Shown here: positions 4,365 through 56,700 of the stretch, piece after piece
Position numbering within the stretch: the stretch's first letter is position 1
Layout: each line of letters opens with the position of its first letter
DNA from: Rhizaria sp. SCN 62-66
Lineage: Eukaryota
Length of the DNA: 57,107 nucleotides
NCBI GenBank assembly: GCA_001724265.1
Contig: MEDY01000402.1
Coordinates: 1-57,107, forward strand
Direction of reading: 5' to 3'
The notes under the pieces: generated by a model
Databases searched by the model: none
What the model was told of the DNA's origin: nothing
What the model saw: the letters and a program-made list of their open reading frames with translations, nothing else
Made by a program: the position numbers and the translations under genes

Positions 4365-7300
4365 TTAAAGCGTCGCAACGGGCACTCCTGTCACGCCAGC
4401 GTCAGCACCACCAGCAGCAGTAGCAGCAGTCGGGGCAGCGCCATTGCCGTGGCCGTTGTCGCCGTCGTCGTCGTCGTTGGCGGGCGTGGCGCCCGCGGCC
4501 AGCGCGGCCTCGCTGTCTGCCGCCGCCGCCGCCGCCGCCTCTTCCGCGCGCGCGCGCGCTCTGGCAGCGACCGCAGCCGCGACGGCCGCGGCGCGCACCG
4601 CCGCCTTGCGCCGGGCCTCGGCCAACGAGGTCGCGGTGACCGGCGGCGGCACATAGCCTGGCGCGCGCTTGCGAGCTTCGTCGGCCGCCATCTCGGCAGC
4701 GAGCGCGGCGGCGGCGTCGGGGCCCAGGGCCTCGGCGGTGGCCGCGATGGCGGCGGCCTCGGCCTCGGCCTCAGGGTCCGGCTCCGGCGGCGGCGGCGGC
4801 GGCGGCGCGGGCCCCGTGCGCGGCAGCTCCCACGGCGCCGGCTGCGGCAGCGCGGCCTCGAAGGCGCCCTGCAGGAGCCACGCGTAGTCCTCGGGCAGAT
4901 CCGCCTCCACGGCGTCGTTCACGCACGCGAACAGCTTGCGCCGGCCCGCCGCGGAAGACAGCCCGTACGCGGGGGTCGACGCCGCCGACGGGGCCAGCAG
5001 CGCTTGCACCTGAGAGAGCGAGTATGAAAGCAAAGATAAGAGGTAACAAGTGAGGTATATGCGCATTTTTTTAATAAAATGAATGAATTTACAGAAAAAA
5101 TACACAAGTAAACAATAAAACCATATCATTATTACCACATAAAAACCAAATTTGTCGTGACGATTTCGCGTGCGTACCTGTCGCAGCAGCGCGCCGGTGT
5201 CCTTGAGGTGCCTGTCGGTGACGCCCAGGTAGGCCGTCGAGTCTGCGTGCTGCGGCGTGTAGGCGTGGTAGAGCTGGCGGAACGGCAGGTGCACGTGCGT
5301 GAGCGCGGCACGGCCCAGCGACCATTCGAGCAGCTGGTCGGCCGTCATGACCGCGCCAGCCACTGCAGCGCCCTGGGCCGCCGCGGCCGAGGCGGCGGCG
5401 GCAGTGGCGGTAGCCATCTCGCGCGTGCGCCGCCGCAGCGCGCCGCGCATCAAGATGAGCTCCTTCGCTGCGGCGGCATTCCCGGCTTCGGTGGCGGCGC
5501 GCATGAGCCGCTCCTGCGTGGCCGGCTCGCCGGGCGCGTCGGGCGCGAACGCCCGCCACGGCGACGCGCGCAGCAGCGCCTCAAGCTACGCCGGCTGCAG
5601 CAGCGCGGACAGCATCAGCGGCATGCCGTCGTCGCCGCGCGCCGGCAGCGTGGGCGTCGCGGAGAGCGCGGCGTGCCAAGTTGACACGCGCAGACTGTCC
5701 TCGTCGTCGTCCTCCGAGACCTCGAAGCCGGCGTCGGCGTCGTCATCGGACGCAGCAGCAGCGCTGTGTCCGCCGCGGCTGCGGGGTCGGTAGACCGAAG
5801 GATCTGAGGCCGCGGCGGGGGTTCCGGGCTCCACGCAGGCCATGTCCCACACGGCCCGCGACCGGCTCGCGCTACTAAAGCCTGCCGCAGAGACGTTCTG
5901 GGGCCTTGCCGAGCGCGCGCGCATGGCCCGGCCGAGCGCGGCCTCGAGCGGCGAGCGGCACAGCGGGCGCGGCAGCGGCGCGCGGAAAGGCCAACGCGCG
6001 GCGCGCTCGCGGGCGCCGTTCTTCGAGTGCATGATCGGCGGCCGCGGTGTGAAGAGCTCGGTCAGCAGAGAAACCACCTCGGTGCCGCGCAAAACGCCGT
6101 CGCAGTCGCCGTCGTGTGACGCGACCATGGCGTGCGCCAAGGAACGCACGGACGGGTGCCTGGGCGAGAGAAGAGAAATTGTTATGAAGACTAGATGTGA
6201 GTACTTTGATTTTAGTGCAATAATACAAATGAAACTCATACAAAAATAAACATAATACTTTTATCTCGATATCGCGAAACACAATCGCGACAAATAGACT
6301 TTTGTTTTCATTGTCGACGCAAACTTCAAGTCGCTTCCCACTCACTGGCTGGGTGCGGTGTGTTATTATGTGAAGCATAGAGCACGTACCTTGCGCCGAG
6401 CGTGAAAGCGGCGAGCATGTAGCCGAACTGCAGGTCGTAGGGGTCACGGAAGCGGTGCGACTCCTGCGCCGCGTACTCGTGGGGCAGCAGAGACTGCAGC
6501 CGCGCGTAAATGTGTTTGTTGCCGACCTGCATTGGATAGCACAGAGCAAATGTGGGGGCAAGATGATATGATACACAAGTGAGATGGAAGTCAAATAGAA
6601 TAACACGGCTAATTAACAATATAAAACAGTGCGAATAACCAAAATACACTCACTTAGTTTCAAATACACCACATTTAATGTCTCAAAATCGTCTAATAAC
6701 ACGCAACGCACCTGCGGCTTGTGCGGGACGGGCATGCGGAGGGGTGCCGGGAGCAGCTTGCGCATGAGCGTCTGCGAGCGCGAGAGCACGAACATGTAGC
6801 TGGCGTCGGGCGGCCGCGCGGCGCGCGAGGCGACGAGTTGGCTGTGGTTGAGCGCGCCGGTGGCCGACAGCGCGGTCCACCAGCGGCCGCGCACGGGGGG
6901 AACGGCGTGGTTCACCGTGGGCGCCGCCGCCGCCGCGTCCACGGGCCAACGCCACGGCGGCAGCGTCGAGATGGGCGCCGCCGCGGCCGCGCTGGCAGCG
7001 GCGAACGCGGCCGCAAACGCCGACGCGGACAGAGACGTCGCCGCGTTGTCGTGGTTGTTGGCGCTACTGCCGCTGCCGCTGCTGCTGTTGCTGCGGCGCT
7101 TGGCGAGGGGCGTGAGCGACAAAGGCAGCGCCTGAGCCCGCACGAGACTGCTGAAGCTGTTCTCAGCGGCCTGGATGCTGTATCTGGCACTGCTCGTGAG
7201 CCCGGCGCTAACGGGGGCGCGGACGGAGGCGTCGGCGTCGGCGTCGGTGTCGGCAGTTGTGGCAGCCGTAGCGAATGAGACGTGGTGACGACTCTTCCGA

Positions 7301-10300
7301 CCGCTGCGACCGCCGTTGCCGTCACTCCCTTCGTCGTCGTCACCGTCGTCGTCGTCTTCGTTGTCCTCGTCAGTCTCCTCCCTGCGGTAGCCGTGCCTGT
7401 AGACACTAGAGCTCGAGGAAGTCTTCGCATTTCCGCTCACACTCGCCGTACTCTCGACACTTACACGCTCGGCACTTACCCCGTCTAAGGGGTCGCTCGC
7501 GCCGGCAATCACCGCGTGCATCGGCAGCGCGGCGGCCTCCTTGGCCTTTCGCCCAGACTTCTTCACACTGCTGCTGCTGCTGTTGTGGAGGTTGAGTCTG
7601 GCGCCCGCGCCGGGCCCCAACCCACCGCGGTTCGCGGCGTGCGTGTCCCGGTCATGGCGGCGCCCGCGGCGGCGCTGATGGTAGCCCAGCCCCAGCACGG
7701 AACCCGTCCACGCGGCCAGCGCCTCGCCCAGTACGCGCCGCGTCGACAGCGGCACGTCCGGCCGGTCCTCGGTGAAGGGCCCCGCCGCCAGTCGCACCGG
7801 TGGCGCCGTCGCCGCGTACGCCGAGTGGGTGGGAGAGTCAGGGTGGCCAGCCGAGTCGCGGTGGCGGCGGCGGCGCAGGTTGACCTCGGTGCTATCGCTC
7901 GACAAGTCGCCCTCCGCATCCGCCGTCGCAGCAGCGTCAGTTGTCTCGGCGTTGTCGTCCTCGCCGTTGACGTAGCCGAGGTCGTCGATGACCGCGAGCG
8001 CGGCCGGGACTGTGGCGTTGACCCACTGCGTCTCCCGGTCCAGTGTGGTCTGCGAGAGCGGCCGCATCGCGCCCGACGCGCTGGGCGCCGAGGCCAGCCC
8101 GACGCGCACTCCCCACGGCTCCAGGTCCCAGAGCAGCGCGGCCAGCACCTGCCGCAGGCGCCGCTGCTTGAGCAGCAGCCGCTCCGCGCGCGCCGCGACC
8201 AGGTGCCGAAGCGCCCACCGCCGCGCGCGCGCCGCCTCCGCGGGCGCGGCCTCGGTCGCGGCGCGCGCGGCGGCGCGGGCTAGGCGCTCTTCCTCGGACA
8301 CAGGACTCCTAGCCTTGCTACCGCCGTTACCGTTGCCGTCGTCTTCCTCGTCGTAGTCGTCGTCGTCGTCTTGCTTGGCCTCAGCCTCGGCCTCGGCCTC
8401 GGCGGCGGCATCCGCGGCATCCTCTGGATCATCGGCGACAAAGTTGGCGCCACTCTGCTGCTGCTGCTGGATGTTAAAGCCCCCAGCAGCAGCACCCGCA
8501 GCAGCAGCAGCAGTGTTTGTGGTGGTGGCGGCGGCAGCAGCCGTGTTGCTGTTGCTGCCGCGGCGGCGGCGGCGGCGGGGCCCTGCGGAGCGCGCGGCCG
8601 CAACGGCGGCGGCGTCGAGGTGGGGGCGAGCGGCGCGCAGCATCTGGCTGAAGGTGAGCGCGCAGTCGCCCCTGTCAAAGGCGCAGGCCGCGTCGTCGCA
8701 CGCGTCGTCGCAAACGCCGTCGCCCAGCCAGGCCACGGGGCAGCCGGGCGCGCAGAAGAGCGGCTCGGGCAGCTGTCGCACTGGATCCCTCCCGGTGGCG
8801 AAGGCGAAGCCGTGGTTAGAGCTGCTGTTGCTGCTGCTGCTGCTACTATTGCTGCCGCTACCGTTGTTGTTGTTGTCATTGTACTCTTGGCTGAGACGGC
8901 TGAGAGGGAACGAGTAGATCTTCTCCCCCTGGCCGCCGAAGCCGTCGTCCACCGCTGCGTGCTCGTACTCGAACGGGTTGCGGCCCGCAGCAGAGCCCTT
9001 GGCGCCCGCGAAGGCCGCGGAGCCGACGGCGCCGGGCGCGGTACGGCCTGCGGTGGCGAGCGGCAGGTGAAGCGCGGCCGCCGCGGCCAGCCGCCGCAGC
9101 ACGGGGTGCGCGCGGCTGCCCGTGACGGGGGGTAGCCCCTTGCCCAGCCGCAAGACCGCGGCGTCGGCGTCGAGGCTGGGGTCCGCCACGCTCGCGCCCG
9201 CGAAGTAGTACGAGCCGTCGCCGCCGTCGCTGCGGCCGCCGCCGCCGCTGCTGCTGCTGCTGCTATCACTAGCAAACTGGTTGTTGTTGTTGGTGTTGTG
9301 ACGCTTGTTGCGCCGGCGCAGCGCCCTGATCCGGTCCGGGTCGTGGCTGCCGCGGGCGAAGGCCCCTGCGGAGTAGAAGGGCGCGTAAGAGCCAGTGTAC
9401 TGCCACAGCGCGGGGGCCGGAACAGCCGCCGCCGCCGCCGCCGCCGCCGTGGCCGCCGCCGAGGCCGCGACGGCGGCCGTCGAGGCGGCGGCGGCGGTCT
9501 TGGCCGCGGCGACGGCCTCCGGCGAGTCGGGGCCTCCGGGGCCCGCAGCGGCGCCGTAAGCCACAGAGGCCGCGGCTGCGGCGCGCTCGTTAGCGGCGGC
9601 GGAGGCGGCGGCGGCGACGGCCGCGGCGGCGGCGGCGGCGGCCCTCTGCGCGCCGTTGGCGCTGCTGCGGGCGACGTAGGCGGCATCCGTGGCGAAGACG
9701 GTGTCGAGGTTGGGCGGCGCCGAGGCCGCGCCGGCGACGACGGTGGCCCAGGCCAGCTCCGAGGCCGTCAGCGGCGGCAGCTCGAAGCGCGGCAGACGCT
9801 GCGCCACGTGAATGCCATGCTGCTGGTGCTGCTGGTGGGTGGAGTAGGCCGACGATGAGGACGCTGTCGCGGTCGCGGGCAGCCCGCGCGTTTGCGCGGG
9901 CGGGACGGTGGGGCCCAATGCGAGCATCATGTCGTAGAGCTCCCAGGCCGCGGGCGCGCGGAGGTAGTTGCGCTCGCAGTCGCCCAGGTCCCAGAGACAC
10001 TCGGCCGACATGCACGCCGGGTGGCAGGCGCCGTCGCCGACGAGGTTCGCGTCGCAGCCGGCCGCGCAGCCGCGCAGCTCCCAACGCGAGCGCTCGAGGC
10101 GCAGCCCGGTCGCGGCGTCGAAAAACTCGGCCTGCGGGACTGGCCGCGAGAAGAAGACGTCGTCGTTGACGTAGACATAGTGGTCCGAGAGCCCCGGGAT
10201 GCGGTGCAGCGCCGACTCGATCGCGTTGGATGAGAAGGACGGCGCGTCGAGCGCGGGGCGGCGGAAGATGGCGCTGTGCGGCACGACCGTGACGGCCGGG

Positions 10301-12001
10301 TGCGACGTGTTAAGCCACGTGGGCGTCTCGCCCGACGTCACGAGGAAGATGCGGCGCACCCACGGCGCGTGCTTGAACACGGAGCGCATCGAGTACCGCA
10401 GCTCGCCCAGGTCGCGGAAGCGGTGGTCCTGCAGCGAGTGCAGGTCGGGCGCAGGCGCCGGGTAACCCTTGACGACGCTCTGTGCTCAGGTTAGGTTAAC
10501 ACGGGTGCAATAGTATTGCAAGGGAAATGTGTTAAGTGAGTACTTTACGACCGGATATAAACATGAAATAAAATATAGATCATTGCTTGATAAATAAGGA
10601 GAAATGTGATGAAAATATAATAAAAATATCTTGTTTCGTGTTTACCTTGTAGTTCTTGAGCGACTCGATGGCGAGCGGCCGTGCGGTCCTCACCGCGGGG
10701 TCCGAGCCGTTGATCCAGGTGTAGACGATGTCCATGGGCTCGACGCAGGCGGCCAGTCCGTAGCGCTCGCCCGAGATCGAGACCCAGCCCGCGGAGAGCG
10801 CCGCCGAGGCGGGGTCGGCGACAGCGGCGGGCACGGCGACGGCCGCGGCCGAGGCGCGGAAGCCCGGCCGGTACACGACGGCCCTGAGGGCGCGTAGGCG
10901 GGCCGCGGCGGCCGCGGCGGCCGCGGCGGCCTCGGGGCCCGACAGCAGAGCCTGTGGCGCAAAGACCGGCGAGACGCCCGCGGCGGACTCGGCGGAGGCG
11001 TTGGCAGGGGCCCGCGAAGGTAGGTACTCGCCCTCGAAGCGCGCCGCCGCGGGTGACACGCCCGCGGCCACGGCAGCCGCGGTGGCGGCGGCGGCCGCGG
11101 CGGCGTCGGCGGCCGCGATCTGCGCCAGCTGCTCCGGGCTGTGTCTCAGCGCCAGCGCCCCGCTCTGCCCCAGCTGGCTTTGGCCCTGCTGTTGCTGCTG
11201 TTCTTGTTGTTGCTCATCGAGCTCTAGCAGCGCGGCGGCGGGCGTGTCCGCCGGGAAAGAGCGGCAGCGCGGGGCGGCCAGGCACTGCGAGCAGAGCGGG
11301 CGCGGCAGCCGCAGCGCCGAGGGCCCGTAGGACGGCCCCAGCGGCGACGCGGCGGAGGGCGGGAGCCGGGACCAGGCGTGCGGGCCGCGCATCACGCCCG
11401 TGTGCGTGTGCCAGAACACGGGCAGGTCGCCGCCCGCGGGCAGCAGCGGCGCGGGCGCGGCGGGCAGCGGCGGTGGCGCCACGCAGCGCTCCTGCTGCGG
11501 CGCGGGCAGCGCGAAGAGCGCGGCCGTGGCGTCGCAGAGCGGACACACGTCCTGGTCGCGGCGCCACGAGGCGGGCAGGAATGACAGCACGTCGGTGGGC
11601 GACTGCGACTGCGGTGGCAGCACCGTGACGTTGTTGTGCTTCGTTGGGGTCGCTGGAGGCGTCGTTGTCGTTGTTGATGTTCCCGATGGGGAAACACTGA
11701 TGTTGCCGCCAGTACCAGACTGTTGGTACTGATGCGACTGTGATTGCTTTGATGTCGTTGTCGATTCAGATAGGGATTCAGAGAGCGACGGAAGGGCTGA
11801 AAGAACGACGAGTGAGTCTAGGGAAGGCGGGGCGGGGCCAAAGCCAAGGCTGGCGCCGAAGGCTGACGTCGAGGTCGAGGCAGCGAGGAGCAGCAGCGAG
11901 GCGGCAGCAACGCCCAGCAGCACCAGCAGCAATGCGCTGGGGCGCTGGCAGATGCCGCCTTCCCGGGAATCAGGCCGTTCCCAGGAAGGGTCGTCGAGCA
12001 T
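4365..12001 (-). CDS. GNPTAB: Stealth-family GlcNAc-1-phosphotransferase alpha/beta-like protein (~2,295 aa) with one in-frame TAG at 5586-5588; exons 12001-10646, 10479-6712, 6526-6390, 6159-5178, 5009-4365
   Basis: Domains appear in the expected order: N-terminal hydrophobic anchor, CR1 (PMDIVYTWINGSDP), CR2 (RFRDLGELRYSMRSVFKHAPWVRRIFLVT...FSSNAIESALHRIPGLSDHYVYVNDDVFF), two LNR/Notch repeats (GDGACHPAC..C.WDLGDC; WLGDGVCDDAC...FDRGDC), CR3 (PHKPQ...SHRFRDPYDLQFGY), EF-hand (DGDCDGVLRGTE), CR4 (KLFACVND...FEAALPQPAPWEL). Four GT-AG introns have consistent phases. Stop is TAA. Confidence 0.88.
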
Positions 12002-12419
12002 CGGACCGCTTCACTACGCGTGCAGGAGTGACAGTAAGACGCGGGAAGACGCGCGCAGGCCGAACAGACGGCAGGCGCGACCAAGAAAAGGGGAAGGTAA
12101 AGGGGAAGTCGGGAAAAGGTGCTGCTGGGTCGGGTGAGGGGAAACAGCTTGGCTGGAGAAGATGTTGGACGGATGGGAAAGTATCGCACTCTCTGAACCT
12201 GCGATATCGAGAACCGGGGTGAGAAAATTGAAAAGGAAAGAAAATAGAACAGAAAACACTCAATAAGCGCTGTTAAATGCGTGTCTCACAGTTCAAGTGA
12301 GTCGTATTAATGCATGCGAGGATACGCTCGAACACGCCCTCTACCTTCCCAGTCGAGGGCGGGCAGTAGGGAAGTGACCGTTGTGGTGTGGGAATTGATT
12401 TTCAGCGTGTTTAGTCATC

Positions 12420-13226
12420 TAAGATTGTGTTTTGAAAGAATTAACCCAAATAAATAAGTTTCTCACTTTAAATGTGGCGCTATTTACATGTATCATGTTT
12501 CATATGCATGTTTTCTATGCAGTGTCTTGCGATTCATTTCACATTATTGTCCGAAGGAGCAACCAATGTCATCAAACATCATGTTCATATCAGAAATGCA
12601 AGTTTTGAGTCAAAATAATATGTTTATTCTGCTTATCTAATATTATATAAAATAGTTAATAAGATTATATTTCTCATTAGTTATTTTAATAAAAACAAAT
12701 TATAAATGTAATTTTTAGATTTTATATATTAAAAATAAATATCAATACATTTTTGTACTGTTTTCAAGTAAAAATACTATTAGAAGTATACGCTAAAGTA
12801 ATCAATAATGATTTTTATTGTATCGAAAACATGACTAACATAAAACATTAAATACACATTAAACAATGTAGATGTATAAAATATTAATTAAAAATTGTTT
12901 ACTAAGTATTAAATTAAAAATGATATTATAAAATAAAAATCAAAGACTACTAACAGATTTACACTTAATATTTTAAAATACTATTTATTAATGTAACATT
13001 TATCATGTATTATTTATAATTAGGTAAAACGAGATATTCCTTGCAAATTGATGCTTTCACTGGATCAGGGTCACATGTATGAATGCTGTACACAGGTTAA
13101 GTATACACCACCGATGATTTAAAATGGTAGAGCGGTATAAGTAGGTATTTTATTCAATAATTAGATAGTTTTCAAGGATAAATATGGATAAAAATTTAAT
13201 ATAGTTCTGTTGTGGTTCTGTTGTGC
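12420..13226. other. Extremely AT-rich intergenic island
   Basis: Visibly the most AT-rich ~800 bp in the window, with no ORF-track entries; lies between the 3' end of the 2,668-aa gene and the 5' end of the GNPTAB-like gene. Confidence 0.7.
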
Positions 13227-16200
13227 TTACTTCACTCCACGTGCGTGGTTAGAAGCGTGATCGAAGCCGCTCATCACGTCCTCAGGCGAGATGATCACTG
13301 ATACAAATGAGCCCTCGCGCGACGCCCGCACATAAGCTGCAGCTGCAGTCCGCAGCGCCTTGGCATCCCAACTTCCCGCAGCAACCGTCGCACCTGCACT
13401 AAGACCGCTGACATCGTCGTCTTCGCCGAAGCTAAACAATTCGTCCTCGAACTCCTCCACAACCTCTTCGCTCTCATTGACGGATGCTATGGCACTCTGC
13501 TTCGAGTCTAAGCGCGCCACCGCTGTTGCAGCCACGAGGTCGAGTTTCTTGTCCACACTCAGGTGTCCTTCTCCAGCGACTGCAAAAGTTCCCTCACTCG
13601 CACCCCTCCCAGCGCCAGCCTCCGCTTCAGCTTCATCGCGCGCGCGCTCAGAGAGCGCGTCGAGCGCGTCAGTGACTGCGACAGGGAGCTCATCCAGCGC
13701 TGGCAACAGTGCACGCGCAAATCCGCCATAGCGCGGCGTTGCGGCGACGGACTTGACATCGAACACGGCGACGGCCACAGGCGGCGCACCCAGTGCCGGG
13801 AGCGAGTCGAGTGACACAGTGCGCGCACGCGCGGGGCCGTGAGCCGCCACAGCGACGGCCGCGGAAGGGAAAAACGCCCGTGCCGCAGCGGCCACGGCCG
13901 ACACAACCGCCCGCGCTGCTGCAGCAGCAAGCCCGCCGCCAGCAAGCCCGCCGCCAGTACCAGTGGTGCTACTGTTTGAGTTGGCGTTGAGCAGACGCGG
14001 CGGCAGCGGCGGCAGCTGCAGGACAAGGGCGACGCGTGGAGGCCAGATGACGGGCAGTGCGCCAGACGCAATCCTGACGCCGCTGCTAGCAACGGCCCCA
14101 GTCGCAGCGGTGGTGCGCGCGCTCGAGCTGACTGCCTTCGGAGCATCCGTATCCGTATTGGCCTCCGCGTCAAAGTCGTAGTCATAGCCGTCGGTGACAG
14201 GCTCGGCGACTGTTGCGGCGTCAACAGGCATCTTGGTCTTGTAGAGAGAATTTGCGGCGGTAGCGCTCACAGTGACCGCAGGGAACGCGACGACAACAAG
14301 ATCACTTGCGCCCGCACTTGTGCTCGCAGCGCTGTCGTTCGAGTGCGCGTTGTGACTGTTCGCGTTGTTTTGCGTGCGCGGGTGACGCTTGGCCCCGGCT
14401 TTATCAGTCTTCGCCCTGCCCGCGCTCGCCCTAACGCTGGTGCTTGCGCTGGCGTGCGGCGGCGTGGGCGTCTGCGGTGGCGCGAGCACCGCACTCAGCG
14501 CGGCCTGCAGAGAGAGCGAGGCCCAGAGCTCGGGCGCGGCCGCCGCGGCGTGCAGCCAGCGCGACAGACGCTGCCGCTCCAGCTCCGCCAGCAGCAGGTC
14601 AGACTCGGCCGCCAACAGCGACTGCGACTGCACCGGTAACGGCGACTGCGGCGGGGAACGCGGAAGGGCAGGAATGGGGCCGTCAGGGAGGGTGAAAGAG
14701 GGCAGCACCAGGCGCAGCGCCAGCATGCTCTGCTGCTACTGCTGCTGCTCAGCGCGAGTGCTGCTGTCGCTCTCGCGATCCTGGCCGCGGGCGCGGTGAG
14801 CGTCGTGCTGGTCCCAGTCAAACAGCGCGTCGCTGTCGTCGTCGGACTCGCCAGTCTGCGCCAGCGGGCGTTGCTGCAGCTGCAGCAGCGCCAGCGAGCC
14901 CAGCAGCCCTCCCAGCCGCGCCTCGGCCTCGCTCACCGCCTCACTCGCACCCACATTCAGACTCGGATTCGAACTCGAATTCGTGCGGGAGCGCGCGAGC
15001 GCGGCGGCGGCAAAGGTCAGCGCCGCGGCTTGCATGCGCGCGCCCAACACCACCAGCGTCTCGGCCGCGCCCGCCACCGCCACAGCACCGGCACCGGCGC
15101 CAGTGGCCGCGCTACTGACAGCGCGAGAAGGAGTGGGAGCATCAGAGTCGGAGCCGGAGTCGGCGCGAGCGACAGTGCCGGCAACGCCGGCGGAGGCCGT
15201 GACGGCGGCGACGTTGTTTGCGCAGATGGCGGGCGCGAGAGGGTGCGGCGCGGCGAGCGCAACGGCCAGGCCCCGGAGCGCGCGCCGCAGGGGCTCCGCG
15301 GCCGCCAGCGCGGGCCCCCGCAGCAGTCGCGGCATCGGCAGAGACACCGCGGTGACCACGCCGCCGCCCCCGCCGCCGGCGCCACTGCCGCTGCCGTCGT
15401 CGCTGTTGTCAGGCGCGTTGTTGCCGCTGTGGCTGCGCGGGGAGACTGGCACGCGCAGGAGCTCGCCGTTGACGCTCACGGTCACGCTGCCGCCGCCAGC
15501 TGCGCCGACTTGCGAGTGCGACAGCGAGTGCAAGTGCGCGTGCGGGTGTGAATGACGCATGTGGAGCTCGCGGCGGGACAGCGGCGACAGCAGACGGCCC
15601 GGGCGCGGCGCCCAAAGTAAGGCCTCGGGGAGCAGCGCCAGCGGCACCGGCGCCGGCTCGGGCGGCCACTGCAGCAGCGGCGGCGCGGCCGCGGCCGCGG
15701 ACGGGGGTCGGGACTGCGACAGAGACGGGGGCTGCGACGGTGATTTGAGGTGAGATTTCTTGTTGAGGCGAGCTTTGTGGAGATCCTTAGCTTTGCTGTG
15801 GTCTTGTTGCTGTTGCTGCGACAGATTGAAGCGCAGCACGTCAACGGCAGCCCCCGCGTTGGCCGCGCCGCTGCTGCCGCGGCCGCCGCCGACATAGTCC
15901 ACAAACGCATCCGCGCCGCCGTCGTAGCCCTCACTGTGGCCATGACCGTGAGCGTGGCCGTGGGCGTGACCGCGGGCGTCGTCGGCGAACAGGGGCCCGC
16001 GGAGACTGGCGGTGGCGGTGACGCGCGAGGTTAGCACAGCCAGCCGCCGCGCGGCGCCCAGCAGTCCCGCCACCGCAGCCGACGCCTGCAGCGGCGACAA
16101 CACGGGCGCAGTCAGGCGCGACGCAGACTGTGCCAGCTGCGACTGCCACAGATGTGCCTGCGACAGACGCTGTGACGGCGGCGGCGGCGGCAGCAGCAGC

Positions 16201-19200: not shown

Positions 19201-21233
19201 CGAACAGTCGTTGTCGCAGCAATCAGGGCTTTCGCGGCCGCGGTCGCAGTGGCCAGCACCTGCAGCAGCAGGGCCTTGACGTGCCGCGGCGACACGAGCG
19301 CGCCCACGGTCACGAGGGGCGGCCTGACTTCACCGACACGCGGATTAACATCGAGCGCGGCGGCCACGTGAGCCGTGAGCGCGCGCAAAAGCGAGACTGC
19401 AGTAACAGCGTGACCAATCGCACACGCAGTCGCCGTCGCCGTCGCCGTCGTGCTTGTGTGGCGTTGAGCGTTGTCGGTGCTTAAAGAAGGAATCAAGTCG
19501 AGGTCGCCTGTGTTCGCTGTGTGATCACAAGCTTGCTTGATACTATTGCCAGCCGTGCTATTGTTCGTAATGCTGTTCAGACCTGCCGTCATCTGTCCCA
19601 TATCACTGACTAAAGTCCCCGGAACATCAGCAGCAGCAGCGGCCGCCGCGGCGACGAGCGCCGCCGCCGCCGCGGCCGTGGCATGCAGGCTGGCGGCCGT
19701 CACACGCGCCGCCGCCGCCGCAGCGGCCACGGCGGCGGTGGGCGCGCCGGGGCCAAGACTGACGACGCCGGTCCTAACAGTGCTCACGGTGCTTACCGTG
19801 TTTGCAGTCACTCTGTCGCTTGTAGAGCTATTCGAGCTATTCGAGCTATCATTAGCGTTACCGTTGCTGCGGCTGCTGCTGCTGCTGTTGTTGTTGTTGT
19901 TGCTGTGGGCAACTGTGAGCTCGAGGAGCCTGAGCGCAGGCGCGCGGTCCGCCGCGGCGCGCCCCCCCGCCCCTTCACTATGGGGGGAGGCGAGCGCGCG
20001 CAGCAGCGGCCACGCGACGGGAGCCGCCGACCGTGGCAGCAGCGGTGGCGGCCGCCGCCACGACTGCTGCCGCCCCGGCTGTTGCTGTGGCTGAGGGTGT
20101 GCCTCCACACGTTGCAGTTGTTGCTGTTCCTGTTGCTGCGAGAGGCTGGGGTTCGCAGCAGAGTCAGCGCCGAAGTCTAAGCAACTGCTGCTGCTGCTGC
20201 TGCTGCTGCCCGTTTTCACCAGTTGCGACAGCGCCAGCGGCTAAACTCCAGAGGAGTGACCGTGATCAGCAGCCAAGTAATCTCCGGCCGTGCAGAGGTC
20301 GCCGAAAGCGCGACCACGATTGCTCAAGGCAGCAGCGGCAGCGGAGTCAAAATAATCGTCACCATCGTAGTATTCAGCAGCGTTGTTGTCTTTGCTATAA
20401 TTGTCGCCGAAATCATCCACAAAAGCATTGCCGTCATGATCAATCCCATTGTGATGTTTCGTAGCGGCACGAATATCGTTATCGTTGCTCAACACAGGCA
20501 GGCTCGAGGCGTATCCACGCGCAGGGTGGGAGACAACCCTTACACTGGCAGCGGAGTCTCGTGGGTAGCAGTTCGAGTTAAAGCTCGAGATAGAGCTCAA
20601 CATTGAGCTCGAGCTAGTGTTCTGACGATGTGAGCTGTGACCAACGTCACTGCCGCCGCTGCTGCTGCTGCTGCTGCTGCTGAGGCTGCACCTGTCATTG
20701 GCGCTGCGCATGCTGCGAGTGGAGCAGGAGCTGGAGCTGGAGCACAAGTCGGAGACAAGGGCGGCGGGTCCAGCAGCGCGCGAGCTAAAGCTAAAGCTAG
20801 AGCTAGAGCTAGAGCAGAGCTAGAGCTAGGAGCTGGATACCCCAAATGCTGAGTTGCTAGGGGCGGAGGCGGAGACAAAGCAACACCACTGCGTCTGCTG
20901 CTGCTGTAGCAGTGCGCTGTGTGCGTGCGGGTGCGCCTGGGCGCGCGCGAGGCTCGGGGGCAGCGCCGGGCCCGCCACCGCAGCAGCTGCGGCCGAAGCA
21001 GCCGCCGCGACTGCAGCCGCTGACGTTGTTACCACCGTCGCCGCGGCCGCCGCCGCCGCTGCCGCTGTCGCAGCGATAGGGAGGCCCGGGGGCAGCGAGG
21101 CGCGGGGGGCTGCGCGCTGAGCGGCCACCGCGCCTGCTGCGGCGGCGCGGGGGACGCGGGGGGCAGCGGCGGCGGCGGCGGCGGCGGCCCGCGCGGCGCG
21201 GTCTGCTGCGCGCCGAGTCGCTGCTCGGTGCAT
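13227..21233 (-). CDS. Large, apparently intronless protein of unknown function (~2,668 aa) with four in-frame TAG codons and a weak PX-like segment near the C-terminus
   Basis: ORF-track pieces 20826-21332, 20241-20747, 14736-20219 and 13227-14726 share one frame and are separated only by TAG (20826, 20820, 20241, 14736). There is no TAA/TGA until 13227. ATG at 21233 directly follows a CAG. 'PIPALP...ELERQRLSRWLH...PELWASLSLQAAL' resembles the end of a PX domain (low confidence). Confidence 0.7.
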
Positions 21234-48517: not shown

Positions 48518-49471
48518 CGTTGCGAGTCGAACTGAGGTGGGGATTTAACAATGATACCGCACAGGAAGTCGACAATAAACATCAGAGCAAGACAGAACCA
48601 AGAGAAAAAGAGCAAGAAAGCGGGGGTGAGAGAGTTGGGTGAGGTGAAGATGAAACAGGCAGAGTGTACAAAGGGAACGAACGTTGCACTAAAGGGGAGT
48701 GTGTTTGCGAGGTCGGAAACAGAGAACAAAAATAACAATATTGCAGGTATCAGGGATATCGCAAACCGCAATGCGCGGGTAACCAGCATCATAGGCATGA
48801 GCCTAGCACACTGTCAAGCGCGGAAGAGCGCTGTGGTGAGGTGAGAGATCGTGTTTTGTGGAGGTGGCGGCATCGAAACGCGGGCACAGCCCGAAATATC
48901 AGAAGACAGTTTTACACCACAAAGGCTTTCCTGCTTCGCTGTCGATATATTACCAATAGCAAGGCCACCACTAAAAGTGTCTGAATACCCTGCCACACAG
49001 CCGGAAACGAGCAAGATATGCTCCATCCAGCCGATGATTTATCCCTTCCTGGCCCTCCAAGGTCCAACGGTGCAATCGTGACTGGGCTCAGCTCTCAGTC
49101 AGCGGCTTGCTTTTCAGCTCGACCACAAACGAGATTCGAGCGGTCGCTGCCAAACAGCTCCCAGGAGACAAGAGGACTTGGCGCTCTCTCTTGCAGGGGG
49201 TATATCTCGGGCTGTGCATTTTCTTTTCGAAATGTAATTTAATTATAAGGTGTTAATTTGCTGTGGGCTTTACGGATTTCAAGCTTATTTGCGAATGACG
49301 GACTCTTCCATGTTTATTTTTATATTTTCTCCTTCCCACCGTCTATAGGCACAGCACGCGCTTGGCGTCCCTTCCAGCAACTCGCTCTCCCTACAAAACA
49401 CAACTAGAGCTATCTTACCAGCGCAACTGAGTTTACTGCTTACTGTTGTACCGCCCAAGCGCCCCGCGAGG

Positions 49472-52400
49472 ATGCCAGTGCGCCCCGCTGCCGCGTCAGA
49501 CAGCGCTCCCGCCGCCCCCGCCCCCGCTGCCGCTCCAGTTGTCGCTGCGCCTTCAGCAATGAGCGCGGGCGCGGGCGCGGGCGGCGCTGCTGTGGCGACC
49601 ACGAGAAGCGCTGCGGCGCCTGTCTTCGGTGCTGCCGCGACTGATGCCCCGCAGCAGCAGTACCAGCACAGTGCGATGCCGGCGCTCGCAGATACTGCGC
49701 CGCAGCCGCTGACCGCTAGCACAAGCAGCAACGGCAACGGCAACAGCAACAGCAACAGCAGCGTTCCTGCCGGCGGCGCGAGCTCGAGCGCAAGCTCTCC
49801 CGCCGCCGCCGCCGCTGTCGCTGCCAACATCGCCGCGACCGCCTCCCCCGCGGCCTCCCTCGACCACGACGGGGGAGACAGCGCTGGCGACTTCGAGAAC
49901 GCGGCGGCGTTTCTGCGCAGCTTGGCCGACAAGGGCTACGACGACGTCGACGACTACAACGGCGGCAGTCACAACGACGTGAGCGTGAACGGCAGCACAG
50001 AGACCGACCTGTCGAGACAGCAATCGCGGATACAGCCGCTGCAGCAGTTGGAGCCAGAGCAGGGCCAGGAGCAAGACGGTGTTGAGAGCGAGAGTGACTT
50101 TACAGTGCACTCAGCCGCTCACTCGACCACGCACCACAATGGTATCAACAATAACGCCAATAATGGTTACATTGCAGAGGGCAACGAGAGCCTCGTCGCT
50201 GCACCTGCCGTCGCGGACATGACCGAGACGATTGTCGCCACTCCGGTCAAGCTCATTCAACAGCAAGAGGCGCAAGCACAAGCACATGCGCAACTGCTCC
50301 AGCAACAGCAGCAGCAGCAGCAGCCGCAAGGTGAGCTTGATATGGAGCTCGACCTCAACCTCGACACCGACAGCGAGCCCCGATTACAGCCGTCCCAGTC
50401 CCAGTCGCAGCCCTCCCACCACCAGGACGCCGCTTTGCTGCTGTCGCCGGACCTGCCGCGGACGTTTTCGACACGCGCTCGCCCTATATCAAACAGCAAC
50501 AGCAACACGAATCCCGCGGATGCTGACGCTGCTGCTGCTGCTGTTGCCAGCGCGCGGGGCGATGACGCCGCCGCCGCTGCTGCTGCTGCTGCTGCTGATG
50601 CCAGTGCCAGTGGCGAGGGTCTCAGCTCGCTCACTCTCGCTATGGCCCTCAGCCAAAACGGCAGCAGCAACGGCTCTAGCGGCGGCGGCGTTGGGGGCGG
50701 CGGCAGCGTGATCTCCCGTCTAAGTACCCCCTTAGACCGGCTGAGCACGCCCTTAGACGCCTCACACTTGCCCCTCACGGGGGCTCTCATCTCTGACGAT
50801 GACGACGATGATGATGACAATCACGGCGGTGACGACAATGCTGGCTCTAAACTGGGAGGCGTGTTTGGCACAACCGCGCCCGCCTTGGTGCCACCGATGA
50901 GCAACAGCAACAACAGCAACAACAGCAACAACAGCAACAATGGCAACAATAACAACGCTCCCTCGAACACGGCGGCCGCTGTCGGTGATAGCGGAGACAT
51001 GCTTCTGTTCGACGTGAAGCAAATCGACGCCCTCTTGGCCTCTGCCGCGCTGGATCTAAGTGGCGCCGCGCCTGGGGTCCTTACATCTGCCCGCGAGGAG
51101 CCTGACAGCTCTCGCTCTCTGAGTAGCAGCGCCAACGCGCACTCGACTGCAACTGGGACTGCGCCGGCGCTGACTGAGGCCGCCACCGCCGCGACTGCAG
51201 CGGAGGCGGCGGAGGAGGCCTGGGCCCGGTTGCTGCAGCAGCAGCGGGAGTCGTTGGCCACGCGGCAGCCGCAGCCGCAGTTGCAGTCCCAGCTGCAATC
51301 CCAGACTCAGTTGCAGCAGTCTCCCCCTCAGCCCCTCGAGTTGGAGCAGGGCGCACACCCGCCCTTCTACCACCCCTATAGCAGCGCCGCTGGCAGCGAC
51401 CACACGGGGGGCATGAGTCCCCTGAACTCCAGCATGAGTCCGCTCACGGCCGCCGCAAGTCCCTTGGGTACCCCAGGGGTTCCCGGCGTCTCCGGCGGGG
51501 TGGGGTCAGTTACCGGCGCGAATCTGCTGATGGCCCACATTACGGAGGCCGACGAGGAGGAGGAGGAGGGCTTTCCCTTGCAGCAGCAGCCTCATAGCCA
51601 GCAGTCTCAGCAGCAGGGTCAGCTGGGTTACCGCGTGGACGGGCTCAGCCAGGCCGACTCCCCGCTCTCGGCGGCGTTGGCCCGGCTCGGCCACCAGCTG
51701 GAGGCGTCTCCGCTGGCCGTGTCGACGACGACGACGGCGGGCGACGCGGCGACGGAGAGCTCTCCGTATTTGGCGACGCCACTGTTCCACGCCATGAACT
51801 CGTCAATGACAACAATGACCAGCACCACCAACCCTGGTACTGCTACTGGCCCTGGCACTGCGACGACGACACCGCTGTATACGAATGTGGCATACGCAAT
51901 CGCGGGCGTGCCCGCGCCTCTCAGCAACACCAGTGCCAGCCCCAGCGCCAGCGCCAGCGCGAGTGCGAGTGTCAATGCGACCGCCGCGGCCGTCACTGAC
52001 CACGACGACGACGACGACGACGATAATGGAGTGAGTGACGGCCCCACAAGCAACACGCGCACCCACACCAACGTGAGCGCTTACACTGGCGGCAATGGCA
52101 CCGAGCCGTACGCCAAGACTGCTCCCGTTGCAAGTGACTCGCATGTAGCAGCAGCGGATGTGTCTGCTTATGACCCGAACAACGGCTTTGACTTTAGCGC
52201 CAGCTCTAACTTCCCTGTTAGTAACAACAATAACAACAATAACAACTACGCTAACATCGCTGGTTATGACACGGAGCCCGGCAACGGCTACTATGCGCAA
52301 GGCTACGACGACGACGACGCTAACGCTTACGCCAACAATAACAATCACGCGAGTCTGCTGCCGAGTGGCAGCTACGACCTCTCGCTCGGCCGCGTAAACA

Positions 52401-53667
52401 CGGACGCTGACAATACCGTTGCTGTTGCCGTTGGCCCTCCCGCAAACGCCGCCGAAACACCCGAACATCATCCCCAGCAGCAGCATGAGTCTCAGTCGAA
52501 GCCAAAGACCAAGGGAAAGCATTCTAGCTCAAAGAAAACTCCTGCTTCTAGCAACAGCAACAGCACCGCTGGAAAGCGTTCTGTCAACTCGATTTACGCT
52601 GTTCCCATGCACAATGCCGGCTTCACCGGTGTGTTGTCGCCGTTAAGTGCGCGCGTGCCGACCATTTATAACGCGAACCCTTACATGCCCGGCGCATACG
52701 CCCCGCCAGCTGCGGGTACTTACAACCCGACCGCTTACATGGTCGACAGCACCTTGGGCTCTGACGCGCACTCCAGCCTCGCAAGCGCCACCCATAGTCG
52801 CGCTGAGCCGGGGCCGCTGCAGTCGCCGCAAATGCAGCGCCAGAGCAGCGGTGACAGTGGGGGCGGTGGCAGCTTCGATGCGCTGTCCCAGTCCATTTCC
52901 CTCTTGCTGCAGCAGCAACAGCAACCCTTCCAGCCTCAGCCAGAGCAGACAGAGCAGAGCCAACCACACGGCGAGAGCGTTCGCCCTGACGTTGCCGCTG
53001 CCGCTGTTGCTGCGGCCGCTGCCGTTGCAGCGAACGCGAGTGCGAGTGAAACGGAGCTTCTGGCCGTGCTGCGCGCTGCCATTGCGAACCACAAGCATCA
53101 GCAGCAGCAACAGCTACAGCAACAGCAACAGCTTGATCAGCGCGGTGTAAGTGTCAGCCTCCCTTTCAATGTAAGTACCCAGGCTGCCGCCCACTTTTCT
53201 CCCTTCGCGTCGCCCCTTACACACTCGCTCTCACAGTCGCAGACACACGGGCGCTCACCCTTACACATGCTGCCGCTGCCGCAGCCTCAGTTCGCTCACT
53301 CGCATGCCAAGTGCCGCCGATCTAAGTGCTCGGCCCGTGGCACGAGAGCGTCTAAGGGGGGCAAGTGGAGGGGTGGCCGCGGCCGGCCATCTAAGCACGC
53401 AGTGAATCTCAGTCGCGGCGACATTGCCGGCAGTTCTGTCGGCCACGGCGAGCATTCGCTGCTGCTGTCGCCGATTCCGCAGGCTCCGGCTCACGGTCAC
53501 TTCGCCCACAGCCCCAGCCCTGCTCACGGTCACTTTGCTCACAGCCACTCTGCTCACGGTCACTCTGCTCACGGTCACTCCCACGGCCATGCGTCGGGCT
53601 ATTTGTCGTCGACCGACAACAACCACACCGACAACGGCCACGGCCACGGCCACCACCGTGTCGGCGG

Positions 53668-53764
<97 letters not shown>

Positions 53765-56700
53765 CGTCAGTGACGGTCACCTGATCACAACTGACAGTAA
53801 CGAAACGCCGACCTTCGGCGACAACTACACCCGCACGAACGGCGTCGAGACTGACGGCGATGATGACGACGACGACGACAGTACGTTGCAGCTCAGTCTT
53901 GCTCGCTCCGGCTCTAAGTACCCGACCTCTAAGCACCACAAGTCCAAGTACCACTCCGCGGCCAAGGGCGCTTCGAAGGGTGCCGTAAAGTCTAAGGGCC
54001 AGCACCGCCTAAGTACCTCTGATGCCTACACTCTTTCTCTGCCGCAACAGCAGCAGCAGCAGCAACAACAGCAACAGCTGCACGGCCACGGCCACAGTCA
54101 GGGGCAGCGGCGGCTGCGGCGGGCGCAGCGCTTGCTGCAGCTCACCCAGCACCTCAACAACAGCAGCCCTCCTGCGGCGAACCTTCACGTGAACAACGTC
54201 GCCGGTGCTGAGGACGACTCTGCGAGCCTCGCTGCCGCTGCCCCTGCCGATGCCAACGACGGCGTTTCAGCTGTGGGCGGCAACGCTACGAACGCTCGCT
54301 TCCACATCGGCCTGCTGGCCTCGCCGTTGAGAACCCCTGACTCGACGACGATGACGACTAGCAGCAACATCAGCAGCAACAGCAACAGCAATGTTAAAGT
54401 GGCAGCGGCGGCGAGCTCGGCCAATTCACACCGCAACAACGCGTTTGCGGCCGCGGTGAACACTCGCAGCGCCACAGCGACAACCGCCCAGACTCCTGCT
54501 ACTGCGACTGCGCGCGCGCTTCCCAGCAACAGCAACAACAGCAACAGCAACAGCAACGGCAACAACGGTGTTCACGGTGCTACGCAGTCGGCTGTCAGTG
54601 CTGACGGCCCGGGTGTTAGCGTTCGGGGTGTTGTCGCCACAGACGCCAGCAGCAGCAACAGCGGCTGCAACGGCGTCGGCAGCGGCAGCGCCAGTGGCGG
54701 CGGTGGTGTCGGCAACAGCAACAGCAGTGCTGGCGGTGTGCAAGTCAATATCTACACTAATAACCCACAGCAGCAGTCGCAACAACCTCAGCGCCAGCAA
54801 CAGAAAACGCAGTCTAAGAAACAGAGCTCTCCGTCTCGGGCTACGACTCAGTCTAAGTGCTGCTGCGGGGGTACTTACCCGAGCGACTGCACCGACTACA
54901 ACGACAACGACTGCGCCTGCTGCTGTGGCAGCCGCGCCGCTCGCGTTCACAACACTCATAGCGGCGTTAGCGAATGCGAGAGCGACGACGCTGGCGCCAC
55001 GCATGTTTCGTACCGCAATCGGTGTAACAACAATAACAACAACAGCAACAACAATAGCCACAACAACAACAACGGCAATAACACGCATAGCGCTGGTGTT
55101 CATCACAGTGACTGCGCTCACAGTCGCGGTCAGAGTCACGCGAAATCGTCGTCTTTGCGCACCGACGCGAAGCTTGTGAAGGCGGCGGCGGCTCAGAGCG
55201 ACTCAGTCACCGCCCGCAACCCCTCGTATGTGAGCGACAACAGCGACGACGACGACGACGAGGACGACGGCGACGACGGCTACAATGACAACAACGCTGC
55301 CGCCGCCGCCGCCGTCGCCGCCCTGAGCACCTTCACCCCTCCCGTGTTCACGAGCTATCACGAGACCAGCGACAACGACACCGACAACGACGACGGCGAC
55401 GCCGACAACGGCAATCACGGCGTTCGTGCGATCGCTGGCGCGTACCCGCCTCAGTTTGAGTGCCCGCAGTCGAGGCACGCTGCTGCCAACAAGGCTGCTG
55501 CGCACGGTCACTCTGCTCGCGGTCAATCCGCTCACGGTCACTCTGCTCATGGTCACAGTCAAAGCCACCGCTGCGGCCATAAACACGCGCATACGGCGGC
55601 GCGCAATGCTACCACTCGGTCCGGCGACCGCGCCCGCGCCCGTGGCGGCCCAGCGGGCGAACGCGAGCGGCTGCTGGCGGTGAAGAAGGAGCTCCGGGCC
55701 GCGCGGCGCGAGCGGGACCTGGGGGCCGTGCGCGTGCTCGCACTTGAAGACCTTGCGCGCGCGCAAATGCAACAGGTACGTCGCTCACTCTCGCCTTTAA
55801 ACAAATCTTATTGGTGATATATTAGTTTTCTATCTTTTAATCATACTTCATTCTTTCTCATAATTCTATTTATATCATGCAATTCCTGCGTTTTCTCGTA
55901 GATCACCGAGCTGCTTGGCGACGATTCTCTCCCAGTCGCCGAGAGCAACGGCGACAACAGCCTTAACGACTCAGCTCTTCCGCATCAACAGCAGCAGCGT
56001 CCACAGCAGCACGACGCTGTGGCGTACTGGCGCGACGCCTCATTCCGCCTGCTGCTGCGCATCCACCAGGAGGCCGAGGCTCACGCGCAGGAGACCGCCG
56101 GCCTCCGCAAGTCGCTTCAAGTCCGTCCCCCGATCTCAATATCTCGCAATATCTTTGTAATGACTTCACATTATACGCTGTTGACAATTAAAATACTTAA
56201 AATACCCGTATTTAACTCCGAAATAGTGCTCACTTTTTCTCGTGCGTTTGTTTTATTGCCTTGTTATGTCCCAACCCAACAGCAATCCGAGGCGCTGACC
56301 CGCGCCTCCCAGGCCGAGTCCTCCTCCTCGGCGGCCTCTCTGCTCTCGCTCCGAGCGGCCCTCGACACCTCGCTCGACTCGCGCGTGGCGGACCGCGACC
56401 GCGTCTCTGCCTTAGAGGCTTCGCTGGCCGAGTCCCGCGCCGAAGCGGCCGCCGCGCGTGCCTCCGTCCGCGCCGCCGAGTCCGCGGCCTCCGCCGCCGT
56501 GGCCGCTGCGAAGCAAGAGCTTTCACAGCGGCTCACGCGCCAGGCTACGGCCGCGCGCGCCGCAGCCGTGGCCACCGAGCGCGCGCGCCTCGTGGACAAC
56601 ACTAGCTCTGCGCGCGCCGCCGCCGCGGGCCAGGCGGCCGCGCTGGAGCAGGAGCGGGCGCGCCACGCAGCCGCGCTTTCCGCCGCGCTCTCCGCCGCCG

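Follow-up and report, generated by a model that had tools for sequence, protein, structure and literature searches.

The 57,107-nucleotide (nt) contig MEDY01000402.1 of Rhizaria sp. SCN 62-66, hereafter called the window, carries on its minus strand the gene of an enzyme of the lysosomal-tagging type, a GNPTAB-like Stealth phosphotransferase, and in this gene a single TAG (5588-5586) stands in frame between the third and the fourth conserved Stealth segments. We observed that coding continues across this TAG, as seen from homology, constraint and codon statistics. The data are most simply accounted for by a reassignment of UAG to sense, for which there are precedents that keep UAA and UGA as stops, and we consider it probable that UAG is reassigned, or efficiently suppressed, in the host. 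The original prediction had described the interrupted gene and had taken it as evidence of UAG decoding; the observation was confirmed, whereas the interpretation is partly supported, being the best available but not proven by the window alone. All counts of genes, gene ends and tRNAs given below are limited to this stretch.

Coding sequence continues across the in-frame TAG

The Stealth gene extends from ATG 12001 to TAA 4367-4365 and comprises five exons. Its spliced coding sequence of 6,885 nt (2,295 codons) ends with the terminal TAA and contains the TAG, at codon 1945, as its sole internal stop, in agreement with the claim that the gene is otherwise intact. The sequence on which that claim was built was found on the minus strand (...CTG CTG CAG CCG GCG TAG CTT GAG GCG CTG...), together with the 27 codons that separate the TAG from the first ATG (5504-5502), the downstream in-frame intron (5177-5010, GT...AG, 168 nt) and the CR4 motif KLFACVND...LPQPAPWEL. 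The TAG joins two open stretches of the same frame, 6260-5586 (224 codons) and 5585-4365 (406 codons). All four introns (166, 185, 230 and 168 nt, in order) are of the GT...AG type; three of them start with GTRCG and intron 1 with GTAAAC. Intron 4 is by chance in frame and free of stops, so that the raw open reading frame (ORF) 4365-5585 spans it and naive ORF callers add 56 spurious residues.

The read-through of exon 4, the intron and exon 5 was used as query against 1.84 billion representative proteins, and five matches were obtained. One of them (P0001) is not independent, as it corresponds to the pre-TAG ORF of the window itself, which had been called from a GTG and stops at the TAG. The other four (P0002 to P0005) are homologues of 24-42% identity that are contiguous across the TAG column. 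The BLASTP alignment with P0002 (expect value, E, of 2e-14) crosses the TAG, the X of which lies opposite L, and is gapless from 19 residues before to 18 residues after it (PLMLSALLQPA-TAG-LEALLRASPW in the window, PVLMTALTQEP-L-LSELLRATPW in P0002). In P0005 the X is opposite I (...EQLLTEP-I-FQRMILASPW), while the MAFFT alignment places A in P0003 and T in P0004 at the same column. The specific proposal that TAG stands for Gln was not established, since none of the homologues has Q at this position, where L, I, A and T were found instead. When the exon 4-5 piece was used in a protein homologue search, nothing was retrieved; the same search with P0004 gave P0003 and P0004 alone, and a scan of bacterial and archaeal genome contigs gave 601 pattern matches and no relative.

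Downstream conservation is not relaxed. In fact, the four homologues are 38, 42, 38 and 24% identical to the window gene upstream of the TAG and 32, 42, 33 and 32% downstream of it, and of the 13 columns that are invariant in exon 4, 6 come after the TAG. The codon usage gives the same picture: with a codon model trained on 4,974 codons from other coding stretches of the window, including Stealth exons 1 and 2, the true frame scores 25 log units (upstream of the TAG) and 28 log units (downstream) above its strongest competitor among the other five, and the G+C content at third codon positions (GC3) is 0.86 and 0.90, respectively. A gene on the opposite strand was considered and rejected; the three plus-strand ORFs lying over the TAG matched no Pfam family (best E 0.93) and had poorer codon-model scores.

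A micro-intron that removes the TAG, which the original prediction had named as a finding that would refute it, is ruled out by the ungapped collinearity with the homologues: no gap occurs near the TAG in the alignments, and therefore there is no intron of any size there. More broadly, it is very improbable that the TAG is removed or altered in the mRNA, be it by a micro- or non-canonical intron or by U-to-C editing. Although a GTAG overlaps the codon, excision would delete conserved residues, and the introns inspected are 125-230 nt long, AT-rich and mostly of the GTRCG type, whereas the surroundings of the TAG are 74% GC. Editing of stop codons is known in some organelles, but nuclear U-to-C editing finds no support here.

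The fourth conserved segment of the enzyme lies behind the TAG

The Pfam matches follow the canonical order CR1, CR2, LNR, CR3 and CR4, the first four being upstream of the TAG and CR4 downstream. Stealth_CR2 (PF11380) gave an E of 1.5e-39 and 135 bits against a cut-off of 39.4 (exon 2, residues 20-124); Notch/LNR (PF00066) gave 1.8e-10 and 41.5 bits over two stretches, and Stealth_CR3 (PF17102), in exon 3, 2.4e-6 and 27.8 bits, above the cut-off of 24.2. The two terminal segments fell just below their thresholds. Stealth_CR1 (PF17101; E 3.3e-5, 24.0 bits against 27.2) is partial, covering positions 1-16 of the 29 of the profile, with the motif DIVYTWINGSDP. Stealth_CR4 (PF17103) was found in the 350 codons' worth of sequence behind the TAG with an E of 2.6e-5 and 24.5 bits against 27.4. 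This segment aligns column by column with the CR4 of P0005, which at 46.1 bits is above the Pfam cut-off. The P0005 segment in turn has counterparts (E 0.005-0.1) in human GNPTAB (7s05_B, residues 1111-1162), in the minimal active constructs and in bacterial CpsY. With an E of 2.4e-51, P0004, a full-length homologue, matches the alpha/beta subunit of human GlcNAc-1-phosphotransferase (7s05_B). A search of PDB with the window's own post-TAG piece returned nothing but a chance low-complexity match (E 0.87), and an AlphaFold2 model of P0002 built on a six-row alignment was unusable (mean predicted local distance difference test score 41.6). Residues 23-41 of the protein are hydrophobic and would fit a type II membrane anchor.

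The label EF-hand that had been given to a stretch ahead of the TAG was not established. The loop DGDCDGVLRGTE (6113-6078) was found, with D16, D18, D20 and E27 invariant in five of five aligned sequences, but no EF-hand family was reported by Pfam at E<=10. In Stealth enzymes of this kind an EF-hand domain is placed between the third and the fourth segments. For this reason, a product ending at codon 1944 would be without part of the catalytic core, and CR4 can be on the same precursor solely if the TAG is read. The claim that termination at the TAG would cost a conserved catalytic segment is thus borne out.

A different solution would be a split enzyme, in which an N-terminal chain ends at the TAG and a C-terminal chain starts at ATG 5504, similarly to the alpha and beta chains of GNPTAB. 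The position of this ATG, 27 codons past the TAG, would allow such an arrangement, but the conserved LxxLLxAxPW block, which starts straight after the TAG, precedes the first ATG and would go untranslated, so that a separate C-terminal polypeptide is not tenable. Moreover, reinitiation after an ORF of 1,944 codons is not expected in eukaryotes, and all four homologues are single-chain in this region. Vertebrate GNPTAB does work as two chains (PMC9388126), but its cleavage lies before CR3 and not between the EF-hand and CR4, as far as its domain layout is known. We therefore give a split enzyme hardly any probability, the least among the alternatives considered.

A second gene contains in-frame TAGs

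The next gene upstream (gene 2), on the minus strand, has 2,500-2,700 codons and is rich in low-complexity sequence; two pieces of it matched no Pfam family, bar a chance Tox-WTIP row at E 0.02. In its frame (21344-13230) TAG is the only type of stop. From ATG 21233, in fact, 2,668 codons contain 4 TAG, 0 TAA and 0 TGA, as compared to 41-97 stops in each of the other five frames. Two of these TAGs (14738 and 20243) were counted as solid. The open codons that follow the one at 14738 end with a TAA (13229-13227) placed exactly at the start of an AT-rich spacer, and the 213 open codons without ATG that follow the one at 20243 imply that the translation start must be upstream of it. The other two TAGs lie in an (AGCTCT)n microsatellite (20780-20830, minus strand), which may be coding, belong to the 5' untranslated region or contain an excised 21-nt piece. 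The residues flanking the three solid TAGs of the window are A-TAG-L in the Stealth gene, V-TAG-P at 20243 and QQQ-TAG-QQ at 14738; backing by homologues exists for the Stealth TAG alone. A search of the ESM Atlas with the post-TAG part of gene 2 gave no usable match (template modelling score <= 0.22).

Stops were surveyed in GC-rich blocks defined by composition and read in their best frame, a procedure that took over from a six-frame codon scan affected by false calls from antisense frames and AT-rich stretches. The mid-exon stops found were the TAGs of the Stealth gene and of gene 2. The other flagged stops were gene ends, a TAA just past an intron in gene 1, splice-site or intronic TAGs, a block of ambiguous strand and a frame switch at about 53.7 kilobases. 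Among the candidates discarded, the TAGs at 46544-46542, 39772-39770, 32075-32073 and 32915-32913 are 3' splice sites or lie within AT-rich introns, and the TGA at 55815, examined as a gene end, is intronic. In public protein sets, prokaryote-style ORF calls are cut at the TAGs (positions 5589-6149 and 13230-14726, minus strand): for the Stealth gene the entry is the pre-TAG ORF P0001, and for gene 2 the ESM Atlas includes the post-TAG ORF, starting from its first ATG.

The same-frame TAG in a second, independent gene agrees with the statement that TAG decoding is supported by more than one gene. However, decoding on the scale of the genome is not established by three solid TAGs in two neighbouring genes, ten gene ends and a window without tRNA or eRF1 genes.

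It is conceivable that these TAGs are true premature stops (recent null alleles, a young pseudogene or assembly base errors) under the standard code, and that an inactive Stealth protein ends after residue 1,944 without CR4. The TAGs are clustered in two neighbouring long low-complexity genes, both of which could be dispensable, while the other nine genes have none; TAG is also the commonest product of random nonsense in these GC-rich genes (41-62%), and a frame switch at a (GCA)31 repeat (53670-53763) suggests that the sequence may be imperfect. Such an origin would nevertheless need three to five nonsense hits, yet not a single frameshift, TAA or TGA is present in about 5,000 codons of the two genes. 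Considering that 2.0-2.6% of substitutions create a stop, about 200 neutral substitutions, and many indels with them, would have to be assumed in order to account for the four TAGs of gene 2. In the Stealth gene, downstream conservation and codon bias are undiminished, and the presence of ORFs that run for 1,256-1,834 codons without interruption suggests that errors are few. Premature termination is accordingly unlikely in our view, although it is the foremost of the alternatives; if the TAG were a null allele, the finding would be ordinary.

In-frame occurrence of TAG and choice of terminators

Eleven genes were counted in the window and ten 3' ends lie inside it. Seven of these genes end with TAA (2116, 4365, 13227, 30800, 37225, 38635 and 46332), three with TGA (25133, 33453 and 42827) and none with TAG. 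The base that follows the terminator (+4) is G at 8 of the 10 ends, as compared to C after every in-frame TAG. With GC3 above 0.8, it is unusual for coding sequences to end mostly with TAA and never with TAG, although ten genes are a small sample.

Several results weigh against UAG being an ordinary sense codon. If the normal share of TAG among terminators is assumed to be 20-30%, its absence from ten ends has a p of about 0.03-0.1. Among 11,019 codons, 3 solid TAGs were counted as compared to 360 CAG and 86 CAA, so that TAG amounts to about 0.7% of Gln codons, whereas in Iotanema the figure is about 8% (PMC5304391). Judging from the TTG/CTG ratio of 0.15, about 54 TAGs instead of 3 would be expected if the codon were a neutral synonym. 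The in-frame TAGs are confined to two adjacent genes (2 of 11, about one third of the coding sequence), and at the Stealth column Q was never seen in homologues. Neither tRNA genes (ARAGORN) nor Rfam matches were found in the window, and the (GCA)31 frame switch is a warning that the sequence may be flawed. Random single-base nonsense hits would yield TAG in 41% of cases in the Stealth gene and in 62% in gene 2, which makes the exclusive occurrence of TAG weak evidence (about 0.16 for three solid sites). Finally, C follows the TAG at 3 of 3 solid sites and at 5 of 5 sites overall, while it occupies 26% of first codon positions (p of about 0.02 for 3/3). In eukaryotes with the standard code, TAG followed by C is the leakiest termination context, and its presence at every site thus hints at readthrough rather than at free use of the codon.

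Leaky or programmed termination at these TAGs under the standard code, to which the constant C points, would also be compatible with the rarity of TAG, as expected for a tolerated but disfavoured codon. The TAG at 14738 has, in addition, the QXQ context (QQQ-TAG-QQ) that raises readthrough by tRNA-Gln in yeast, according to PMC13192750; this context is present at 1 of 3 solid sites, and the Stealth site has no Gln next to the TAG (Q-P-A-TAG-L-E). The RNA downstream of the three solid TAGs is in no case unusually structured (Z of -0.07, -0.02 and -0.39 as compared to 0.09 and -0.76 in controls, none exceeding shuffled sequences). If the catalytic core depended on readthrough, most of the product would be wasted, and, since the TAG is 408 nt upstream of the last intron, the mRNA would be subject to decay under the exon-junction rule known from mammals. 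Considering also that TAG terminates none of the ten genes, we judge readthrough under the standard code to be quite unlikely, even more so than premature termination.

If UAG is sense, TAG 5588-5586 would be a translated codon in an intact five-exon gene of 2,295 codons for a GNPTAB-like Stealth phosphotransferase. The host would end translation solely at UAA and UGA, UAG would stand for an amino acid, and the ribosome would make one type-II-anchored precursor carrying CR1, CR2, two LNR repeats, CR3, the EF-hand-like loop and CR4. Such decoding would presumably involve a tRNA with anticodon CUA, derived from tRNA-Gln or tRNA-Leu, and an eRF1 with weakened recognition of UAG. The eRF1 gene is not in the window.

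Given decoding, we infer that the inserted residue would be Gln with somewhat better than an even chance, and Leu with an appreciable but clearly smaller one. Gln is favoured because, in the context of the CAG run at 14738, one C-to-T change would be synonymous. Leu, for which UAG stands in the rhizarian exLh and some ciliates, would suit the Stealth column with its L, I, A and T among the homologues.

The rarity of TAG would fit a young or still costly reassignment. Tentatively, this GC-rich, aerobic lineage might have been caught early in a change of code affecting UAG only, in which UAG has been lost as a terminator (UAA-G and UGA-G being used) and is just beginning to return as sense. It would so far make up about 0.03% of codons, be confined to long genes of weak codon bias and always precede C.

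Positions of the features and composition of the window

The coordinates of the features of the Stealth gene and of the gene 2 TAGs are collected in Table 1.

Table 1. Features of the Stealth gene and in-frame TAGs of gene 2 (positions in the window).
Feature	Position	Strand	Description
Exon 1	10646..12001	-	452 codons; ATG 12001-11999; putative hydrophobic anchor, residues 23-41; CR1 at 10741-10694
Intron 1	10480..10645	-	166 nt, AT-rich, GTAAAC...CACAG
Exon 2	6712..10479	-	1,256 codons; CR2 at 10422-10108; first LNR/Notch at 10068-9973; later a second LNR; long low-complexity inserts
Intron 2	6527..6711	-	185 nt, GTGCGT...TGCAG
Exon 3	6390..6526	-	137 nt, end phase 2; CR3 at 6520-6401
Intron 3	6160..6389	-	230 nt, GTACGT...CCCAG
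Exon 4	5178..6159	-	982 nt; EF-hand-like loop DGDCDGVLRGTE at 6113-6078, acidic low-complexity stretch, TAG, then 136 conserved codons
In-frame TAG	5586..5588	-	codon 1945 of 2,295, in the middle of exon 4; TAG CTT (+4 base C)
Ten codons after the TAG (LEALLRASPW)	5556..5585	-	conserved (LSELLRATPW in P0002, FQRMILASPW in P0005); upstream of the first ATG, 5504-5502
Intron 4	5010..5177	-	168 nt, AT-rich, GTACGC...CTCAG
Exon 5	4368..5009	-	214 codons; CR4 at 4943-4818 (RRKLFACVNDAVE...LPQPAPWELPR); Ala/Pro-rich tail
Terminator TAA	4365..4367	-	next base G; AT-richer 3' region
Gene 2 TAG, solid	14736..14738	-	inside a CAG run (CAG CAG CAG TAG CAG CAG); 502 open codons, then TAA 13229-13227
Gene 2 TAG, solid	20241..20243	-	near the 5' end; 156 codons before it from ATG 20711; 213 ATG-free open codons after it
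Two further same-frame TAGs of gene 2, not counted as solid	20820..20828 (20828-20826, 20822-20820)	-	(AGCTCT)n repeat between ATG 21233 and ATG 20711

The window is eukaryotic nuclear DNA, in which exons of 65-78% GC stand against AT-rich introns and spacers. The contrast is unusually sharp at introns of about 125-230 nt and about 30% GC that are set in exons of 70-78% GC (for example 10480-10645, 6527-6711, 6160-6389, 5010-5177 and 55777-55901). In the introns inspected, donors are mostly GTRCG, GTAAAC and GTATGT being also found, and a CTCAC-like element is located 20-40 nt ahead of the YAG. The spacer at 12300-13200, between the start of the Stealth gene and the end of gene 2, is about 1 kilobase long, AT-rich and 34% GC.

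LETM1, MSS51-like and methylmalonate-semialdehyde dehydrogenase genes are present in the window and point to an aerobic host. The nearest relatives of the aldehyde dehydrogenase of the window have 73-76% identity.

The perfect (GCA)31 repeat on the plus strand (53670-53763) coincides with a change of reading frame inside one long gene (ORFs 49349-53773 and 53406-55817). In the first frame, which stops at TGA 53771, the repeat is translated as poly-Ser; in the second it gives poly-Ala, and it is in this frame that the coding statistics carry on. No donor-like GTRCG is near the switch, which may be either an indel error in the repeat, a genuine frameshift or recoding. In the same gene, a 15-nt unit (CTGCTCACGGTCACT), coding for His/Gly/Ala/Ser repeats, forms tandem arrays at 53489-53580 and 55498-55556 (plus strand), which flank the frame switch.

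Comparison with known systems

The protein resembles GNPTAB (human and zebrafish; PDB 7s05, 7s6n, 9bgg) and the Stealth family in having the anchor, CR1, CR2, two LNR, CR3, the EF-hand-like loop and CR4 in this order. It differs from GNPTAB in being about twice as long (2,295 as compared to the 1,256 amino acids commonly quoted), with large inserts rich in Ala, Ser, Gln and Asp, in having no DMAP1-binding domain detected by Pfam and no C-terminal hydrophobic segment, and in its CR1 and CR4, which are just under the Pfam cut-offs. A further difference is the single in-frame TAG that separates the EF-hand-like loop from CR4 in the window gene.

Nuclear-code departures outside ciliates are few, and a change of UAG alone with UAA still a stop was not known until 2017, according to PMC5304391. 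The same source describes reassignment of UAG only, with UAA and UGA kept as stops, in Iotanema spirale (UAG=Gln) and in the rhizarian exLh (UAG=Leu). In phyllopharyngean ciliates UAG is reported as Leu or Gln, with UAA as the preferred stop (PMC11687900). In the literature consulted, no GC-rich non-ciliate with UAG-only decoding was found beyond Iotanema, the rhizarian exLh and ciliates, which does not prove novelty. As in these codes, UAG occurs in frame within conserved coding sequence of the window while UAA and UGA terminate, UAA being the commonest (7 of 10). However, UAG is rarer here, with 3 solid cases in 2 of 11 genes, than reported for the rhizarian exLh (384 in 71 genes) or Iotanema (about 8% of Gln codons; PMC5304391), and the window differs from those codes in its GC-rich genome, AT-rich introns, aerobe-type genes and C after every in-frame UAG.

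With regard to the QXQ readthrough described in yeast (PMC13192750), the gene 2 TAG at 14738 has exactly that context, whereas the Stealth TAG and the one at 20243 are without a Gln context, and the yeast work, as presented there, concerns mutant alleles in an organism with the standard code. The codes in which a codon is ambiguous between stop and sense (Condylostoma, Parduczia and Blastocrithidia; PMC4967479, 10.1101/2022.04.12.488043, PMC12153298) have in common with the window a stop codon that is read as sense within genes. In those systems, as far as these sources describe them, the codon read as sense acts as a terminator too when it lies close to the 3' end of a gene, whereas here TAG ends none of ten.

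If UAG is sense in this host, it would represent a new case within the known class of UAG-only nuclear code variants, distinguished by the rarity of the reassigned codon. Since callers that apply the standard code cut both genes at the TAG, annotation of the host would then be systematically wrong. As a GC-rich lineage with very rare sense UAG, it would show an early stage of reassignment and would be a system in which it can be tested whether the loss of UAG as a terminator comes before its capture. An early UAG-only change, if true, would illustrate in a living lineage the transitional stage postulated by the codon-capture and ambiguous-intermediate theories.

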